A DNA stretch of 29,596 nucleotides, from IMG/VR virus record IMGVR_UViG_2541047905_000021, one strand, 5' to 3'. The translations under genes and the position numbers were made by a program. Shown piece by piece: positions 1,943-7,908 of this stretch. The notes beneath the pieces are model-generated. The model worked only from the letters and a program-made list of their open reading frames with translations, had not been told where the DNA came from and searched no databases. This stretch comes from a virus. Its lineage: Duplodnaviria > Heunggongvirae > Uroviricota > Caudoviricetes. How positions within the stretch are numbered: position 1 is the stretch's first letter; each line of letters opens with the position of its first letter.

Positions 1943-2439
1943 CAGTGATGACGCTTAATCTCGTTGAAAAACAGCCAGCAGCTATGCGCCGGATAGTTGG
2001 TAAGCATCTGGCCGTCCCTCGCTGGCAGGAGACATGTGATTATTATAATCAGATGATGGAACGCGAACGGCTAACAGTTTGCTTTCATGCGCAGTTAAAA
2101 CAACGTCACGCAACGATGCGTTTTGAAGAAATGAACGACGTCGAACGTGAACGGCTGGTTTGTGCAATTGATGAACTGCGTGGGGCATTCTCAAAACGCC
2201 GTCAGGTTGGCGCAAGTGAGTATGCATATATTAGTTTTTTAACAGTCAGTCAGCGTCGTACTTTATTTATGCATGCCGGATTGACTGAAAAAGAATTCAA
2301 CCAGCCATACTGGCGAATTAATGAAGAGTCATGTTACTGGCGTGATGCTTTATTCCGTGCATTACGTGAATTATTCAGCCTGTTTGAGTATGCACCGACA
2401 ATTCTGACGTCGGTAAAACCAGAGCAATATCTGCATTAA
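1939..2439 (+). CDS. B: Replication protein B (helicase-loader-like)
   Basis: 166 aa, the same length and position as P2 gpB. Confidence 0.8.
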   Translation: MTVMTLNLVEKQPAAMRRIVGKHLAVPRWQETCDYYNQMMERERLTVCFHAQLKQRHATMRFEEMNDVERERLVCAIDELRGAFSKRRQVGASEYAYISFLTVSQRRTLFMHAGLTEKEFNQPYWRINEESCYWRDALFRALRELFSLFEYAPTILTSVKPEQYLH

Positions 2440-2502
2440 GTAATTAACCAGAGTTTTTAACGCACTTAATCGTGCGGGGCTTCTTTTTGCCTGGAGAAAG
2501 TT

Positions 2503-2727
2503 ATGCATACAGTTTCTGAAAATCAGTGCGGTATATACGCATTACTGCTGCAACAGGCCAGAACCGAAGCACAGGCCGACGCTGCGACGCGCTTTTCTTC
2601 TCATCTTGATGCCATGATTCGCCACATCACAAAGGCGGAGTTATCCCGCGTGGAGATAGTCGAGCTGCTCAGTCAGGAGTCGGAAAAATTTCACAATATC
2701 GGATTGTCTCGCGGGGAGGTGCTTTGA
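2503..2727 (+). CDS. Hypothetical early protein in the position of P2 orf80
   Basis: 74 aa, with GGAG upstream of the ATG. It is synteny-conserved between B and A. Confidence 0.6.
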
Positions 2728-3029
2728 TGTCCTGTTCTCGTTCAGTTGTATTACTGAATAACGCCTTAAAAATCGCCGTTATGAAAAATGGCGATTTGTC
2801 TCTTATTCAACTTGGTCTTGATAAAGAAAAACACGAAATAACTGAGTCTGTTATCGCGATTTATCAGAACGAATTAAACCTCCTGTCTGATGTGGTCAAT
2901 TTACTTGTTAAACGCGCTGTGTTTCACAAGCAAATCTCCTCCGTGGATGAACTGACGAAATTAACGACAGAAATCGCCAGCTATTGCGCTGATGAATTTA
3001 AAAACCTTAACGACAAAAGGAACTGGTAA
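2724..3029 (+). CDS. Hypothetical early protein in the position of P2 orf81
   Basis: 101 aa. Its start overlaps the previous stop and its stop overlaps the next ATG (TAATG). Confidence 0.6.
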
Positions 3030-3253
3030 TGCCGGACAACGTAGATTTTATTCAGGAACAACAGGCTGAATTACTGGAGCGCCAGATTAACGCGGCAAGG
3101 GTAAAACATTGCGGTGCTTCTGCGCTGGTTTGCGAAGAGTGTGACGCGCCAATACCTGCTGCCCGTCGTGCGGCTTATCCGTCAGCCACGCGTTGTGTTT
3201 CCTGTCAGTCAGTCTTTGAAGCAAAAAACAAGCATTACCGGAGAATGGCATGA
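3029..3253 (+). CDS. TraR/DksA-family C4 zinc-finger protein in the position of P2 orf82
   Basis: 74 aa with CEECDAPIP...(17 residues)...CVSCQ, the four-Cys TraR/DksA C-terminal zinc finger. Confidence 0.75.
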   Translation: MPDNVDFIQEQQAELLERQINAARVKHCGASALVCEECDAPIPAARRAAYPSATRCVSCQSVFEAKNKHYRRMA

Positions 3254-3525
3254 GTATTCGTATCGAAATTGGCGAACGTTATGTCGTTACCAGTGACAGC
3301 TTTCAGTTTATTCTCCACGAGAAAAAGAGAGCGGAAAGCGGTAAAAACGCCGGTCAGGAATGGCTGGCGGTGGTTGGTTATTACCCGAAATTAAGCCAGC
3401 TCGTTTCCGGCCTGATGCATCACGATATTCTGACCGGAAGCGCAAAGTCTTTTGCTGATTTAAACGCGCAGGTTGAGCAACTCAGCAAGCGTTGTTCAGA
3501 GGCTTTTGGCTCATATGGCCGTTAA
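3250..3525 (+). CDS. Hypothetical early protein in the position of P2 orf83
   Basis: 91 aa. It overlaps its neighbours by 4 nt at its start and 11 nt at its end. Confidence 0.6.
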   Translation: MSIRIEIGERYVVTSDSFQFILHEKKRAESGKNAGQEWLAVVGYYPKLSQLVSGLMHHDILTGSAKSFADLNAQVEQLSKRCSEAFGSYGR

Positions 3526-5791
3526 AGCCTCCGGGCGTTTTGTCCCTCCGTCAACATTTGCTGCAGGTACCGGTAAGACGTTTACCGGTGCTTATGCATG
3601 GAACGCGCCACGCGAGGCCGTCGGGCGCGAAAGACCCCTTACACGTGACGAGATGCGTCAGGTGCAAGGTGTTTTATCCACGATTAACCGCCTGCCTTAC
3701 TTTTTGCGCTCGCTGTTTACTTCACGCTATGACTACATCCGGCGCAATAAAAGCCCGCTACACGGGTTTTATTTCCTCACATCCACTTTTCAGCGTCGTT
3801 TATGGCCGCGTATTGAGCGCGTTAATCAGCGCCATGAAATGAATACCGACGCGTCGTTGCTGTTTCTGGCAGAGCGTGACCATTATGCGCGCCTGCCTGG
3901 AATGAATGACAAGGAGCTGAAAAAGTTTGCCGCCCGTATCTCATCGCAGCTTTTCATGATGTATGAGGAACTCTGCGATGCCTGGGTGGATGCGCATGGC
4001 GAAAAAGAATCGCTGTTTACGGATGAGGCGCAGGCTCACCTGTATGGTCATGTTGCTGGCGCTGCACGTGCTTTCAATATTTCCCCGCTTTTCTGGAAAA
4101 AATACCGTAAAGGACAGATGACCACGAGGCAGGCATATTCTGCCATTGCCCGCCTGTTTAACGATGAGTGGTGGACTCATCAGCTTAAAGGCCAGCGTAT
4201 GCGCTGGCATGAGGCGTTACTGATTGCTGTCGGGGAGGTCAATAAAGACCGTTCACCTTATGCCAGTAAACATGCCATTCGTGATGTGCGTGCGCGCCGC
4301 CAGGCAAATCTGGAATTTCTTAAATCGTGTGACCTTGAAAACAGGGAAACCGGCGAGCGCATCGACCTTATCAGTAAGGTGATGGGCAGTATTTCTAATC
4401 CTGAAATTCGCCGGATGGAGCTGATGAACACCATCGCCGGTATTGAGCGTTACGCCGCCGCAGAGGGTGATGTGGGGATGTTTATCACGCTTACCGCGCC
4501 GTCAAAGTATCACCCGACACGTCAGGTTGGAAAAGGCGAAAATAAAACCGTCCAGCTTAATCACGGCTGGAATGATGAGGCATTTAATCCAAAGGATGCG
4601 CAGCGTTATCTCTGCCGTATCTGGAGCCTGATGCGCACGGCATTCAAGGATAATGATTTACAGGTCTACGGTTTGCGAGTCGTCGAGCCACACCACGACG
4701 GAACGCCGCACTGGCATATGATGCTTTTTTGTAATCCACGCCAGCGTAACCAGATTATCGAAATCATGCGTCGCTATGCGCTCAAAGAGGATGGCGACGA
4801 AAGAGGAGCCGCGCGAAACCGTTTTCAGGCAAAACACCTTAACCGGGGCGGTGCTGCGGGATATATCGCGAAATACATTTCAAAAAATATCGACGGCTAT
4901 GCACTGGATGGTCAGCTCGATAACGATACCGGCAGACCGCTGAAAGATACTGCGGCGGCTGTTACCGCATGGGCGTCAACGTGGCGCATCCCGCAATTTA
5001 AAACGGTTGGCCTGCCGACAATGGGAGCTTACCGTGAGCTACGTAAATTGCCTCGCGGCGTCAGCATTGCTGATGAATTTGACGAACGCGTGGAGGCTGC
5101 ACGCGCCGCCGCAGACAGTGGCGATTTTGCGCTGTATATCAGCGCGCAGGGCGGGGCAAATGTCCCGCGCGATTGTCAGACTGTCAGGGTTGCCCGTAGC
5201 CCGTCGGATGACGTTAACGAGTACGAGGAAGAAGTCGAGAGAGTGGTCGGCATTTACGCGCCGCATCTCGGCGCGCGTCATATTCATATCACCAGAACGA
5301 CGGACTGGCGCATTGTGCCGAAAGTTCCGGTCGTTGAGCCTTTGACTTTAAAAAGCGGCATCGCCGCGCCTCGGAGTCCTGTCAATAACTGTGGAAAGCT
5401 CACTGGTGGTGATACTTCGTTACCGGCTCCCACACCCTCTGAGCACGCCGTAGCAGTGCTTAATCTGGTTGATGACGGTGTCATCGAATGGAGTGACCCG
5501 GAGGTCGTGAGGACGCTCAGGGATGCATTAAAACACGGCCTGAAAACACCAAATCGTCAGCAAAGAAACGGAAGCCCGTTAAAACCACATGAAATAGCAC
5601 CGTCGGCCAGACTGACCCGGTCGGAACGATTGCAAATTACCCGTATCCGCGTTGACCTCGCTCAGAACGGTATCAGGCCGCAACGATGGGAGCTTGAGGC
5701 GCTGGCGCGTGGCGCGACCGTAAATTATGACGGGAAAAAATTCACGTATCCGGTTGCTGATGAGTGGCCGGGGTTCTCGTTACCCATTTGA
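3515..5791 (+). CDS. A: Replication initiation endonuclease gpA, a rolling-circle HUH nickase
   Basis: 758 aa from MAVKASGRF, compared with 761 aa for P2 gpA. It has the HUH-type motif EPHHDGTPHWHMMLF and the two-tyrosine motif GYIAKYISKN. The longer ORF starting at 3473 would overlap orf83 extensively. Confidence 0.9.
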   Translation: MAVKASGRFVPPSTFAAGTGKTFTGAYAWNAPREAVGRERPLTRDEMRQVQGVLSTINRLPYFLRSLFTSRYDYIRRNKSPLHGFYFLTSTFQRRLWPRIERVNQRHEMNTDASLLFLAERDHYARLPGMNDKELKKFAARISSQLFMMYEELCDAWVDAHGEKESLFTDEAQAHLYGHVAGAARAFNISPLFWKKYRKGQMTTRQAYSAIARLFNDEWWTHQLKGQRMRWHEALLIAVGEVNKDRSPYASKHAIRDVRARRQANLEFLKSCDLENRETGERIDLISKVMGSISNPEIRRMELMNTIAGIERYAAAEGDVGMFITLTAPSKYHPTRQVGKGENKTVQLNHGWNDEAFNPKDAQRYLCRIWSLMRTAFKDNDLQVYGLRVVEPHHDGTPHWHMMLFCNPRQRNQIIEIMRRYALKEDGDERGAARNRFQAKHLNRGGAAGYIAKYISKNIDGYALDGQLDNDTGRPLKDTAAAVTAWASTWRIPQFKTVGLPTMGAYRELRKLPRGVSIADEFDERVEAARAAADSGDFALYISAQGGANVPRDCQTVRVARSPSDDVNEYEEEVERVVGIYAPHLGARHIHITRTTDWRIVPKVPVVEPLTLKSGIAAPRSPVNNCGKLTGGDTSLPAPTPSEHAVAVLNLVDDGVIEWSDPEVVRTLRDALKHGLKTPNRQQRNGSPLKPHEIAPSARLTRSERLQITRIRVDLAQNGIRPQRWELEALARGATVNYDGKKFTYPVADEWPGFSLPI

Positions 5792-5860
5792 GTAAAAATA
5801 CAACGTGATTTGATATGGCATTGAATGGCTTATGCGGAGCAGTTATGGGGCAGCAGAAGG

Positions 5861-5898
5861 TCAATAGCATGCTGAATTAGAAGGCTAAATGCTATTGA
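5861..5898. other. Hairpin or inverted repeat TCAATAGCAT-N18-ATGCTATTGA
   Basis: Perfect 10-bp arms in non-coding DNA about 70 bp after the A stop. No T-run follows, so it is not a canonical terminator. Confidence 0.5.
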
Positions 5899-5972
5899 GT
5901 GACTAGCATGTCGGTAAGGACAGCCGTTTGATCCTGGTCATAAAAGGCCATCCATTTAGTCTAATAAAATCA

Positions 5973-6001
5973 TTGCGGGTAACCTTATGTCGACGCATAA
6001 T
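5973..6001 (+). promoter_or_regulatory. Candidate sigma70 promoter for the plus-strand sRNA: -35 TTGCGG (5973-5978), 17-bp spacer, -10 CATAAT (5996-6001)
   Basis: The hexamers and spacing were read directly from the sequence. An AT-rich tract (CTAATAAAAT) lies upstream. The predicted start is about 6008-6010, right at the 15-nt repeat. Confidence 0.35.
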
Positions 6002-6006
6002 TCGTC

Positions 6007-6021
6007 TTGAGCGAAGTCTTG
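6007..6021. repeat. 15-bp direct repeat, copy 1 (TTGAGCGAAGTCTTG)
   Basis: It is identical to 6271-6285. It lies at the predicted 5' end of the plus-strand sRNA. Confidence 0.95.
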
Positions 6022-6081
6022 TCAGTCTTTCATCGTATTGATGATGGGCGCAAAAAAACCACCCTGGCAGGTGGTTTTTTT
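6009..6081 (+). ncRNA. Candidate antitoxin-like sRNA of about 73 nt, made of a 5' seed, a small stem-loop (6030-6044) and an intrinsic terminator
   Basis: A promoter-like element lies upstream. The 5' sequence is complementary to the minus-strand leader at 6285-6271. There is an internal stem TCATC/GATGA and a terminal GC stem followed by a U7 tail. No credible ORF is present. Confidence 0.4.
6052..6081. terminator. Bidirectional rho-independent terminator (AAAAAAACCACC-CTGGCA-GGTGGTTTTTTT)
   Basis: A GC stem, CCACC/GGTGG, is flanked by an A7 run on one side and a T7 run on the other, so it can terminate transcription in both orientations. It sits 12 nt beyond the stop of the minus-strand 37-aa ORF. 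Confidence 0.8.
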
Positions 6082-6093
6082 GTTTGAAGCATA

Positions 6094-6207
6094 TTAAAGC
6101 ATAATGCTGACATTGATATTACTGACGTTTACTGACAAACCACTCGGACTACCGTTTGGATAGCCAAAGAGGGCCAGAACGAGAATGCAGTAATAGCATT
6201 TCTTCAT
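6094..6207 (-). CDS. 37-aa hydrophobic small peptide (MKKCYYCILVLALFGYPNGSPSGLSVNVSNINVSIML); candidate type I toxin or small membrane protein
   Basis: AGGAGG lies 4 nt upstream of the ATG. The peptide has a KK N-terminus, then about 15 hydrophobic residues, then a polar tail. The terminator follows immediately downstream. I do not recognise the sequence as any named family. Confidence 0.55.
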   Translation of the reverse strand: MKKCYYCILVLALFGYPNGSPSGLSVNVSNINVSIML

Positions 6208-6211
6208 ATTG

Positions 6212-6264
6212 CCTCCTGTAAGTAGAGGGCAACTTCCACCGGTATATGCGCTTCTTAGGTGGAA
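6212..6264 (-). promoter_or_regulatory. Predicted leader structures. One hairpin is CCUCU/GGAGG (6228-6212) and would occlude the SD. The other is a 7-bp hairpin UUCCACC/GGUGGAA (6264-6234).
   Basis: The complementary segments were read directly from the sequence. The SD-occluding stem is only 5 bp, one of them a G-U pair, so the evidence is modest. Confidence 0.35.
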
Positions 6265-6270
6265 TGACTT

Positions 6271-6285
6271 TTGAGCGAAGTCTTG
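6271..6285. repeat. 15-bp direct repeat, copy 2 (TTGAGCGAAGTCTTG), in the leader of the minus-strand peptide mRNA
   Basis: It is identical to 6007-6021. On the minus-strand RNA it reads CAAGACUUCGCUCAA, 64-78 nt upstream of the peptide AUG. Confidence 0.95.
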
Positions 6286-6351
6286 CCCTGAAATAATGCT
6301 CTGTTTAAACGCAAAGTGATTTGGCATATCACCGAACAGAGAGCCGGAAAA

Positions 6352-6401
6352 ACACAACATATAGTATGTCGTTGTTTCTAGACATACATTCTATGTTGTG
6401 T
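6352..6401. other. Large imperfect palindrome: ACACAACATATAGTATGTC, a 10-nt spacer, then GACATACATTCTATGTTGTGT
   Basis: The arms pair over 10 bp plus 7 bp around a small internal bulge. The palindrome overlaps the candidate promoter of the peptide mRNA. Confidence 0.6.
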
Positions 6402-6416
6402 AACAAGGGCTTTGCA
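6388..6416 (-). promoter_or_regulatory. Tentative promoter for the peptide mRNA: -35 TGCAAA (6416-6411), 17-bp spacer, -10 TAGAAT (6393-6388)
   Basis: The -10 is good and the -35 is weak. An AT-rich tract lies upstream. This is the best of several weak candidates. Confidence 0.25.
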
Positions 6417-6562
6417 TTAAACATGTTTGAGATTTTATTGATGTAGCTCAAAGTAAAAAACAGAGACTACGGATGATAAGGTCTTGAAAGCAATGTAAAT
6501 TTTTTAAAGTTGCCAATTGCTTAAAAATGTACAGTTGCGGTATGGCGTACTTAAAAAGCTAT

Positions 6563-6591
6563 GCATGCAACAAGTGAATGTTTTTGCATGC
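6563..6591. other. Inverted repeat GCATGCAA-N13-TTGCATGC
   Basis: It has 8-bp perfect arms, each containing the palindrome GCATGC, in the AT-rich tract before cos. Confidence 0.45.
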
Positions 6592-6685
6592 GTTGGGGAT
6601 GTCCGTTCAGGCTGCGTGCGGTCAGGACTGGTGCGGATCCATAGTATCTATGCAACTGCATTAAAACCGCCCCGTGAAGCGGGCG

Positions 6686-6704
6686 GGCGAGGCGGGGAAA
6701 GCAC
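6686..6704. other. cos: cos cohesive-end sequence GGCGAGGCGGGGAAAGCAC (19 nt)
   Basis: It matches the P2 19-nt cohesive end as I remember it. It lies between the cargo region and the end of Q, exactly where the P2 map places cos. A GC hairpin (6667-6686) abuts it. Confidence 0.8.
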
Positions 6705-6845
6705 TGCGCGCTGGCGGTGGTGCTGATTTTATTTTTTCGGCGTCTCAGCGCGTCGTGATGGCGTTTAGATTGTGTGCCGGGGCGTCGGTGTGTCTGCGGG
6801 CTGTTTTGCGTGGAGGTGAGCGTGTGAGGGCGTGATGACGGGGTG

Positions 6846-6869
6846 TAAAAAAGCCGCCCGCAGGCGGCG
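6846..6869 (-). terminator. Intrinsic terminator after Q (GCCGCC-TGC-GGGCGGC-TTTTTT on the minus strand)
   Basis: A GC-rich stem plus a T6 run begins 5 nt after the Q stop. Confidence 0.8.
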
Positions 6870-6873
6870 ATGT

Positions 6874-7908
6874 TCAGCCGTTGTCAGTGTCCAGTGAGTA
6901 GTTTTTAAAGCGGATGACCTCCTGACCGAGCCAGCCGTTTATCTCGCGGATCCTGTCCTGTAGCGGGATAAGCTCATTGCGGACAAAGACCTTTGCCACT
7001 TTCTCAATATCACCCAACGACCCGACGTTCTCCGGCTTGCCGCCCATCAACTGAAAGGGGATGCGGTGCGCGTCCAGCAGGTCAGTGGCGCTGGCTTTTT
7101 TGATATTAAAAAAATCGTCCTTCGTCGCTACTTCACTGAGGGGGATAATTTTAATGCCGTCAGCTTTCCCCTGTGGCGCATAGAGAAACAGATTTTTAAA
7201 GTTGTTGCGGCCTTTCGACTTAACCATGTTTTCGCGAAGCATTTCGATATCGTTGCGATCCTGCACGGCATCGGTGACGTACATGATGTATCCGGCATGT
7301 GCGCCATTTTCGTAATACTTGCGGCGGAACAGCGTGGCCGACTCATTCAGCCAGGCAGAGTTAAGGGCGCTGAGATATTCCGGCAGGCCGTACAGCTCCT
7401 GATTAATATCCGGCTCCAGCAGGTGAAACACGGAGCCGGGCGCGAAAGGTATCGGCTCGTTGAAGGACGGCACCCACCAGTAAACATCCTCCTCCACGCC
7501 ACGGCGGGTATATTTTGCCGGTGAGGTTTCCAGTCTGATGACCTTACCGGTGGTGCTGTAACGCTTTTCCAGAAACGCATTACCGAACACCAGAAAATCC
7601 AGCACAAAGCGGCTGAAATCCTGCTGGGAAAGCCACGGGTGCGGGATAAATGTCGAGGCCAGAATATTGCGTTTGACGTAAATCGGGGAGCTGTGATGCA
7701 CGGCAGCACGCAGGCTTTTTGCCAGACCGGTAAAGCTGATTGGTGGCTCATACCATCTGCCGTTACTGATGCACTCGACATAATCCAGAATGTCACGGCG
7801 GTCGAGTACCGGCACCGGATCACCAAAGGTGAATGCCTCCATTTTCGGGGCGCTGGCGGTCATTGTTTTTGCCGCAGGTTGCGGTGTTTTCCCTTTTTTC
7901 TTGCTCAT
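6874..7908 (-). CDS. Q: Portal protein gpQ
   Basis: 344 aa, the same as P2 gpQ, in the conserved position beside cos. Its start overlaps the P stop. Confidence 0.9.
   Translation of the reverse strand: MSKKKGKTPQPAAKTMTASAPKMEAFTFGDPVPVLDRRDILDYVECISNGRWYEPPISFTGLAKSLRAAVHHSSPIYVKRNILASTFIPHPWLSQQDFSRFVLDFLVFGNAFLEKRYSTTGKVIRLETSPAKYTRRGVEEDVYWWVPSFNEPIPFAPGSVFHLLEPDINQELYGLPEYLSALNSAWLNESATLFRRKYYENGAHAGYIMYVTDAVQDRNDIEMLRENMVKSKGRNNFKNLFLYAPQGKADGIKIIPLSEVATKDDFFNIKKASATDLLDAHRIPFQLMGGKPENVGSLGDIEKVAKVFVRNELIPLQDRIREINGWLGQEVIRFKNYSLDTDNG

Follow-up and report, generated by a model that had tools for sequence, protein, structure and literature searches.

A putative type I toxin-antitoxin-like module with convergent RNAs in P2-like prophages and enterobacterial plasmids

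Introduction

Toxin-antitoxin (TA) systems of type I are characterized by an mRNA of 150-400 nt, a small hydrophobic protein of 20-60 amino acids (aa) and an antisense interaction region of at least 15 nt (PMC8594479). A survey of 24 families (T1TAdb, 2021) found layouts with overlapping 3' ends in Gram-positive families only and interaction outside the overlap only in Fst/RNAII and SprA1; in the Gram-negative TisB, ShoB, Zor and DinQ families the gene of the small RNA (sRNA) is located 5' of the mRNA without overlap (PMC8594479). The present analysis concerns a locus around positions 5973-6416 of the viral record IMGVR_UViG_2541047905_000021 (Caudoviricetes), whose entire stretch of 29,596 nt is referred to as the window and represents a P2-like prophage. 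The locus carries a 37-aa frame on the minus strand and, on the plus strand, a predicted convergent sRNA complementary to the leader of the peptide mRNA. Judged from its sequence, it probably constitutes an RNA-controlled (type I) toxin-antitoxin-like module. The RNA-controlled small-peptide cassette that an earlier sequence-only reading of this DNA had proposed thus finds support with respect to architecture and RNA-RNA control, namely by a coding open reading frame (ORF), covarying RNAs and covariation between seed and target.

The elements needed for a comparison with known systems are listed below.

6094-6207, minus strand: 37-aa ORF (stop codon included) encoding the peptide MKKCYYCILVLALFGYPNGSPSGLSVNVSNINVSIML; intact frame, ratio of nonsynonymous to synonymous change (dN/dS) 0.1-0.4
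6052-6381, minus strand: predicted peptide mRNA of ~330 nt, derived from promoter and terminator positions; 316-340 nt across lineages
6271-6287, minus strand: repeat copy 2 in the leader of the mRNA, target of the sRNA (5'-GGCAAGACUUCGCUCAA-3'), 64-80 nt upstream of the AUG
5973-6001, plus strand: predicted sRNA promoter with -35 TTGCGG (5973-5978), 17-nt spacer and -10 CATAAT (5996-6001); hexamers conserved
6007-6023, plus strand: repeat copy 1, the sRNA seed TTGAGCGAAGTCTTGTC; contains the exact 15-mer and co-varies with copy 2
6008-6081, plus strand: predicted antitoxin-like sRNA of ~74 nt with 5' seed, central hairpin and Rho-independent terminator with U7, based on fold and covariation
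6024-6049, plus strand: central sRNA stem-loop; hairpin kept although the sequence differs in each lineage
6052-6081, both strands: shared bidirectional terminator A7-CCACC-CTGGCA-GGTGG-T7; folds on each strand, invariant

Comparison with described type I systems

Like the module, the plasmid-borne par locus of Enterococcus faecalis pAD1 (Fst, RNA I/RNA II) consists of convergent RNAs which share one bidirectional terminator and overlap outside the ORF (PMC8594479; in part, PMC3815029). Functional pairing takes place through direct repeats outside the overlap in both cases; however, par is Gram-positive and possesses two repeats, DRa and DRb. These pair at the translation-initiation region of the toxin, whereas the module has a single repeat and its target, 64-80 nt upstream of the AUG, lies off the Shine-Dalgarno (SD) sequence and the start codon. 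The likeness to par suggested earlier therefore holds for the convergent RNAs and the shared terminator but not for the number of repeats and the position of the target. Membership of the Fst family is not indicated by the databases: peptides of the main lineages had no match in Pfam or NCBIfam, and no Rfam family reached its gathering score. In SprA1/SprA1AS (PepA1) of Staphylococcus aureus, the sRNA likewise overlaps the 3' end of the mRNA and acts via a non-overlapping 5' domain (PMC8594479). This system is again Gram-positive, with peptide and RNA sequences unrelated to those of the module. SprA1AS targets the translation-initiation region.

TimP/TimR, located at the ryfA locus of Salmonella and E. 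coli, resembles the module in being enterobacterial and in the signal-like hydrophobic N-terminus of its peptide. TimP comprises 38-41 aa encoded on an mRNA of ~300 nt, and TimR, which ends in an intrinsic terminator, matches the 5' untranslated region (5'UTR) with 18 continuous nucleotides at its 5' end (PMC7667032). By acting on the timP leader, TimR blocks its activation (PMC7667032; in part, PMC11228461). In contrast to the module sRNA, which is convergent and located downstream, TimR is divergent and upstream without a shared terminator; moreover, TimP/TimR represents a chromosomal core locus, whereas the module resides on mobile elements. At the sequence level, only 11 N-terminal columns (M-K-x-x-C-x-C-I) of E. 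coli K-12 TimP (MKIRCFCIVLIVSGALLTEVNNNRSLSGDNLLVVNNLQSSK) align with the module peptide (hhalign probability 11%, P=0.0027, not significant), and BLASTP gave no alignment. RyfA (RF00126) had no Rfam match at E<=10 within 5700-6950, and inspection of the E. coli K-12 timR and ryfA sequences by eye revealed no resemblance to the module.

TisB/IstR-1, ZorO/OrzO, ShoB/OhsC and DinQ/AgrB share with the module a Gram-negative origin, pairing in the leader well upstream of the ribosome binding site, a structured mRNA and an occluded SD; IstR-1 blocks the standby or activating leader structure of tisB. Unlike the module peptide, the toxins of these systems are single hydrophobic helices, and their antisense RNAs are encoded 5' of the mRNA without overlap. 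Accordingly, of the earlier parallel drawn to these four systems the leader targeting can be retained, while position and overlap of the sRNA gene differ. The Rfam model OrzO-P scored 21.3 bits compared with a gathering score of 60, driven by the terminator. Hok/Sok membership is contradicted by the lack of a Hok/Gef match in Pfam and NCBIfam and by the sRNA of the module, which lies off the 5' leader. Two further candidates were rejected as unrelated: IesR-1/PSLT047 of pSLT, 597 nt in length, is antisense to another gene, and the Pas sRNAs of prophages in enteropathogenic and enterohaemorrhagic E. coli stem from lambdoid phages of the Shiga toxin type.

With a 37-aa ORF on a predicted mRNA of ~330 nt and 15 nt of exact complementarity (17 nt with one G·U pair), the locus has the generic dimensions of a type I system. 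Its organisation combines a Gram-positive-type layout in Enterobacteriaceae with 5'UTR targeting of the TimR/IstR kind. Since no named family fits, the comparison points to a new type I TA-like family and a new organisational variant.

Covariation of seed and target

The exact 15-mer TTGAGCGAAGTCTTG noticed in the sequence-only reading occurs only twice, at 6007-6021 and 6271-6285, both on the plus strand, and two matches were obtained in none of 100 dinucleotide shuffles. As also anticipated there, the start of the predicted plus-strand RNA is complementary to the mRNA leader; the complementarity extends over 17 nt (6007-6023 against 6287-6271) with one G·U pair and a predicted duplex energy of -27.9 kcal/mol. 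Comparison with relatives covered 15 lineages overall, 13 representatives of which were folded and compared for several of the RNA results reported below. Seed and target were written as an intermolecular helix, and the pairs were counted in 13 distinct combinations of copy 1 and copy 2. In this helix, 94.6% of the cells are paired and positions 4-17 form Watson-Crick or G·U pairs in every sequence. Whether the two copies co-vary in homologous loci had been named in advance as a check, and the comparison revealed four pairs that have changed on both sides. The covariation score of 0.210 exceeds that of shuffled alignments (0.147±0.018) and was reached by 0/500 shuffles. The window and the Klebsiella types carry the seed GAGCGAAGUCUUG[C/U]C, the Salmonella type has GAGCAAAGCCUUACC in both copies and one lineage has UUGUCAC in both copies. 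In every lineage, RNAduplex placed the best site of the sRNA at the repeat. Seed and target thus co-vary as a conserved RNA duplex of 16-18 nt, situated 55-60 nt upstream of the SD.

A different explanation would be that the direct repeats are DNA sites for a protein, similar to operators or iterons, and that the apparent sRNA is a promoter-like sequence next to a terminator ending transcription of gpA or other upstream genes. Shared protein-binding sites would also change together, and the hairpin could stop read-through from gpA in P2. However, differences that affect only one copy, observed at five positions, are all transitions giving G·U pairs in the orientation sRNA(+)/mRNA(-), and neither A·C nor C·A is found. 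With the opposite orientation, or if the repeats were pure DNA sites, about half of such differences should be A·C or C·A mismatches. The same G·U rule is obeyed by L088 and L090, two lineages recovered through a peptide search independent of the terminator pattern. In addition, the region from copy 1 to the terminator maintains its hairpin by compensatory changes with G·U pairs fitting the plus strand only, the distance between -10 and repeat is fixed, and the genes upstream differ entirely between plasmids and phages. Taken together, a DNA-site origin of the repeats is extremely improbable, and control of the peptide by RNA pairing is the reading pursued here.

The plus-strand RNA and the shared terminator

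The promoter-like element TTGCGG-17-CATAAT at 5973-6001, proposed to precede copy 1, is present, and its conservation extends to relatives: both hexamers of TTGCG-N17-CATAAT persist in nearly all lineages despite a scrambled 17-nt spacer, and the repeat starts 6-7 nt after the -10 in every lineage. A consensus scanner missed this promoter because its -35 matches at only 3/6 positions. The predicted sRNA is 72-76 nt long in the 13 lineages compared. Its RNAalifold consensus consists of an unpaired 5' end of 17 nt, a hairpin and the invariant terminator. Within the central hairpin, seven pairs have changed on both sides, and the G·U pairs fit only the plus strand. The covariation score of the sRNA is 0.250 (0.140±0.020 in column shuffles; 0/500 reach it), and sliding the 3' partners of the helices reduces pairing from 92% to 47-64%. 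The earlier statement that this unit lacks a credible ORF remains valid, the sole candidate being a leaderless TTG frame. Conserved promoter, length and covarying hairpin support the view that the plus-strand unit behaves as an sRNA gene.

The hairpin at 6052-6081, situated 12 nt past the stop codon of the peptide and flanked by A7 and T7, folds both ways as previously supposed, with predicted energies of -18.8 kcal/mol on the plus and -19.1 kcal/mol on the minus strand. Due to the shared terminator, the 3' ends of the two predicted RNAs are complementary. The terminator, including its loop, shows 100% identity across all lineages (L088 and L090 among them), while identity elsewhere in the module falls to ~50%. 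A terminator scanner missed the hairpin, probably because the extension of the stem absorbs the T run. In Rfam no family reached its gathering score: the sub-threshold matches, among them RNAI, Phe_leader, OrzO-P and rseX, are centred on the terminator, lie far under the gathering scores and were rejected. Stem and tail (CCACC...GGTGGTTTTTTTGTTTG) resemble the 3' stem-loop of ColE1-type RNAI; the corresponding model RF00106 gave 24.8 bits, below threshold. The same terminator 26-mer is also found in a viral contig (L039) which, by its sequence, apparently carries a ColE1-like origin. A minus-strand promoter-like element, CTGACA-17-AATTAT (6025-5997), was discarded; it is one site where 2.0 are expected, and its -35 is not conserved.

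The canonical Hfq-type build of the sRNA, with 5' seed, hairpin and U-rich terminator, raises the question of whether it acts mainly in trans on host or phage genes, Hfq-dependently, with the leader site as a secondary target or sponge and the ORF hitch-hiking. Mobile-element sRNAs acting on core genes are known, and sRNAs of the plasmid pKPN3 form many chimeras with chromosomal transcripts in RNA interaction by ligation and sequencing (RIL-seq). On the other hand, no further seed match with <=2 mismatches was found in the 29.6-kb window, seed and linked leader site change together across different hosts, the ORF is under purifying selection and the spacing inside the module is fixed at 263-270 nt. 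A mainly trans-acting sRNA is therefore very unlikely; such activity would also be compatible with the TA-like reading rather than exclusive of it.

The K. pneumoniae MGH 78578 study, comprising differential RNA sequencing (dRNA-seq), RNA immunoprecipitation sequencing (RIP-seq) and RIL-seq, describes two abundant Hfq-bound sRNAs of pKPN3 next to a hok-family toxin gene, KpnR_127 (68 nt) and KpnR_128 (120 nt) (PMC10907235). Both (pKPN3 133742-134491, L084) are unrelated to the module; their region adjoins the hok gene and contains no module. A search of the KpnR_124 region for the patterns of seed and terminator was negative, and pKPN3 is not established as a carrier. The KpnR_126 region carries different annotated genes, its sequence being unsearched.

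The peptide

As outlined in the sequence-only reading, the minus-strand ORF (6207-6094) encodes MKKCYYCILVLALFGYPNGSPSGLSVNVSNINVSIML and is preceded by AGGAGG (6217-6212) 4 nt ahead of the ATG. In all lineages the ORF is intact and accompanied by an SD, with a length of 37, 38 or 39 aa, and the frame is kept in ~19 distinct peptide variants. Between lineages, the proportion of differing synonymous sites (pS) amounts to 0.5-0.9, near saturation, compared with 0.2-0.3 for nonsynonymous sites (pN), and dN/dS is ~0.1-0.4 in all informative lineage pairs. The peptide is under protein-level selection and represents a real coding gene. A longer ORF of 88 aa (6360-6094), which starts at an upstream ATG and appears in the mechanical ORF list, was rejected because its extension is broken by stops or missing in relatives; only the 37-aa frame is kept.

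The peptide consensus reads M-[KND]-[KR]-x-x-x-C-[IL]-x-[VLI]-L-x-L-x-[GS]-x-x-x-G-x-x-S-x-[WL]-x-[VI]-x-x-x-x-[IV]. A basic N-terminus is followed by a hydrophobic core of ~12 residues (residues 4-14) and a polar C-terminal half; the grand average of hydropathy (GRAVY) is 0.77. Its description as a hydrophobic peptide is in line with the GRAVY value, but the combination of a short signal-like N-terminal segment with a polar C-terminal half is unlike a classic single-helix toxin. That it belongs to no named toxin family agrees with the database searches, in which the peptides gave no family match in Pfam and NCBIfam (main lineages) or in PHROGs.

This layout lends weight to an alternative in which the sRNA tunes a non-toxic small membrane or secreted protein, with a role in superinfection exclusion, signalling or transporter modulation and without addiction or killing. 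The regulatory evidence fits such a protein and a toxin equally well, and the site lies in a phage defence and exclusion hotspot. Furthermore, TimP, the nearest analogue, allows growth at endogenous expression after deletion of timR (PMC7667032). Nevertheless, most of the diversity and of the copies is found on large conjugative plasmids with unrelated neighbours, which is typical of addiction modules, and tight repression in multiple layers (anti-SD hairpin, structured leader and dedicated sRNA) is a hallmark of toxic products. A harmless peptide is hence considered unlikely, although it is the most probable of the alternatives, and the TA-like reading is preferred.

Promoter and leader of the peptide mRNA

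Upstream of the ORF, the following elements were recognized.

6388-6416, minus strand: putative peptide-mRNA promoter with -35 TGCAAA (6416-6411), 17 nt and -10 TAGAAT (6393-6388), proposed from conservation
6299-6341, minus strand: leader hairpin CUCUGUU..GUGAU..AUCAC..AACAGAG; near-invariant in P2 and Klebsiella lineages
6234-6264, minus strand: leader helix 5, UUCCACC...GGUGGAA, between target and SD; four pairs changed on both sides
6212-6230, minus strand: SD AGGAGG (6217-6212) and anti-SD GCCCUCU (6230-6224) forming a small hairpin (helix 6); 90.7% paired
6417-6500, no strand assigned: conserved block upstream of the mRNA promoter with the palindrome AAACATGTTT and an FNR/CRP-like sequence TTGATgtagCTCAA (6438-6451); conserved in all lineages

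The promoter pattern TGCAAA-N17-TA(G/A)AAT is present in 12/13 representative lineages with divergent spacers. The consensus fold of the leader comprises six helices, including two further short ones, with 94.8% of the cells paired; in it, the loop of a 4-bp hairpin contains the target's 3' half. Three outer pairs of the leader hairpin at 6299-6341 have changed on both sides, and L090 shows further changes to CUCUGCC/GGCAGAG. Across the leader, nine pairs are changed on both sides compared with 2.8±1.3 in shuffles (0/500), and the invariant G·U pairs fit the minus strand only. Both RNAs are thus backed by structural covariation compatible with the predicted strand alone.

The SD had been suggested to pair with an upstream CCUCU. 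Indeed, the anti-SD lies 6 nt upstream of the SD and the pairing is kept in relatives (CCUCC/GGAGG, CCGCC/GGUGG). The predicted probability of the SD being unpaired is 0.03-0.16 in the P2/Klebsiella-type lineages folded and ~0.4 in two of the Salmonella type.

Within the conserved upstream block, TTGATgtagCTCAA is centred ~63 nt upstream of the predicted mRNA start. A 10-bp inverted repeat, ACACAACATA/TATGTTGTGT at 6352-6361 and 6392-6401, flanks this start and overlaps the -10; being only loosely kept in other lineages, it could represent an operator or a chance occurrence. The upstream block of ~100 bp is also found ahead of an unrelated dinQ-like module on the E. kobei plasmid NZ_CP156932.1 (L055 1200-1300). 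There, positions 730-1210 form a different candidate type I module, which consists of a 25-aa ORF (MIDIDHAILALNALLVCLEIAKAFH) with GGAGG upstream, a 17-nt direct repeat (GTTAGATGAAGACAGTT) in two copies ~173 nt apart and a putative small transcript that would start from the shared promoter block and end at a terminator.

Distribution and mobility

Homology among the relatives covers ~5950-6500 (~560 bp). All features listed for 5973-6416 by the sequence-only reading are present in that interval, but the functional unit, as delimited by sequence conservation, reaches past it on both sides to ~5950-6500.

The full 444-bp region occurs in 152/5426 complete E. coli genomes (~3%) with 100%-89% identity, always unannotated and adjoining gpA of P2 in every case. 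Among the carriers is E. coli KO11FL (NC_017660.1), derived from E. coli W, whose copy is 99.8% identical. Three phage records carry the cassette as well; in one of the carriers, the Salmonella phage MET_P1_103_31, the 37-aa coding sequence is annotated as hypothetical. On plasmids, the cassette was detected in 388 records at ~74% identity, nearly all of them Klebsiella IncFIB/IncFII conjugative plasmids. Salmonella and Citrobacter IncF plasmids were matched via the terminator alone and possess the whole architecture at ~50% overall identity. Scanning viral and metagenome contigs for sequence patterns yielded further lineages. When the peptide was used in an exhaustive HMMER search, only 7 clusters among 1.84 billion representatives were retrieved; L088 and L090, found in this way, display the same promoter, seed/target, terminator and leader. 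A word-indexed protein search with the 88-aa extension gave only three near-identical clusters. Four matches of the leader-hairpin pattern, the only ones in a scan of one genome per species, fell in unrelated metagenome-assembled genomes and were taken as chance.

Only two P2 sub-lineages adjoin gpA, and all other lineages are found in non-P2 contexts with unrelated neighbours, the upstream genes being entirely different between plasmids and phages; the unit is therefore autonomous and mobile. Beside the P2 sub-lineages the downstream cargo varies between an ImmA/IrrE peptidase, an AAA ATPase and none, and the spacing inside the module remains fixed at 263-270 nt. Between plasmids and P2-like phages, the module is transferred as a whole. 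Its designation as prophage cargo applies to two sub-lineages only: the main home of the family is enterobacterial plasmids.

On one metagenome contig (Ga0268256_1001162, L071), two paralogous copies at 3369-3648 and 6291-6569 lie 2.9 kb apart. Their seeds are nearly identical, and cross-talk between both sRNAs and both leaders may occur. The Klebsiella-derived plasmid pJ53-KPC_Vir (L004) carries an annotated dinQ type I toxin gene (6399-6536) ~1 kb to the right of the module, between insertion sequence elements, so that small RNA-controlled toxin genes appear to be clustered near the module on this plasmid.

Proposed mechanism

Transcription start sites (TSSs), toxicity, direction and mechanism of regulation as well as the biological role are inferred from sequence and from the systems discussed above. 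The minus-strand mRNA of ~330 nt would start near 6381, end at the 6052-6081 hairpin and encode the 37-aa peptide. By analogy to TimP, the peptide probably enters the inner membrane through its signal-like segment. The mRNA alone is probably poorly translated because the SD would be held in the small anti-SD hairpin below a structured leader. The plus-strand sRNA of ~74 nt would start at ~6008 and terminate at the same hairpin, and its first 16-17 nt could bind the leader at a site 64-80 nt upstream of the AUG. As for IstR-1/tisB and TimR/timP, the probable effect of such pairing is to block a standby or activating structure in the leader and keep the peptide off; alternatively, the seed-leader duplex might be a substrate of RNase III, with the same outcome. 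The complementary terminator stem-loops may aid the first contact of the two RNAs, as in enterococcal par.

Loss of the element or transcription shut-off would then release the peptide, leading to plasmid or prophage addiction and possibly to abortive infection. The prevalence on large conjugative plasmids is suggestive of post-segregational addiction, and a cassette in the P2 hotspot could, by the same principle, contribute to prophage stability or bring about abortive infection.

Several observations weigh against this model. With ~12 residues, the hydrophobic stretch is rather short to form a transmembrane helix, and the C-terminal half is polar; an AlphaFold2 model of the single peptide, computed without alignment, had a predicted local distance difference test (pLDDT) score of 60.6, which is uninformative, and was not used. 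Both promoters have a weak -35, and the one of the mRNA is proposed from conservation. Three of the four double-changed seed positions separate the same two clades, so that the number of underlying evolutionary events may be small. Repression is not explained simply by a target located 55 nt upstream of the SD. Neither the strictly invariant terminator nor the conserved 6417-6500 block is accounted for by the model, and no transcript, TSS, translation or toxicity data were found for any member.

A more far-reaching version of the model would see in the module the first enterobacterial type I TA family on the 'Gram-positive' par/SprA1 plan, with the invariant terminator serving as a kissing-loop nucleation site, a toxin anchored through a Sec-type signal, with its polar tail in the periplasm, instead of a pore-forming helix, and a function in P2-like prophages as a minimal RNA-triggered abortive-infection or prophage-addiction device. 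This combination is speculative and, as a whole, somewhat doubtful.

Full-text literature on type I TA systems in P2 prophages and Klebsiella plasmids, on the peptide strings and on the P2 hotspot contained no description of the module, though a report in a subscription journal is possible. If the TA-like reading is correct, the module would add to Enterobacteriaceae a new type I TA family with a layout so far seen in Gram-positive families only (PMC8594479). The cassette is common yet unannotated, being present in ~3% of complete E. coli genomes and on hundreds of Klebsiella IncF plasmids of clinical importance (resistance and virulence plasmids), whose persistence it could aid. P2-like hotspots that look 'empty' can hold RNA-based cargo, which gene-centred defence surveys (PMC9122126, PMC13586616) would miss. 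Moreover, the natural seed variants GAAGUCUUG and AAAGCCUUA (Salmonella type) would provide ready-made orthogonal sRNA/target pairs, also for the engineering of RNA devices.

Genomic setting

In the window, gpA (replication endonuclease) ends at 5791 and the portal gene Q occupies 7908-6874 on the minus strand. The P2 cos sequence GGCGAGGCGGGGAAAGCAC is located at 6686-6704. The interval between gpA and Q is a known anti-phage defence hotspot in P2-like phages (PMC9122126), and in the window it contains no conventional gene. In RefSeq, none of the listed carrier genomes has an annotation within the gpA-Q interval. From the cassette to cos, ~190 bp of non-coding DNA (6500-6686) follow, and the hotspot of the window prophage is otherwise empty; a 69-aa ORF starting with TTG (6517-6726), which spans cos, is probably spurious.

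Many complete E. coli chromosome records start exactly at P2 gpA (gpA at 1-2277), for example NZ_CP185789.1, NZ_CP050047.1 and NZ_LR883965.1, in which the module is located at 2266-3366 or 2459-2902. It is suspected that assembly-rotation software used the prophage 'replication' gene, and not dnaA, as origin marker.

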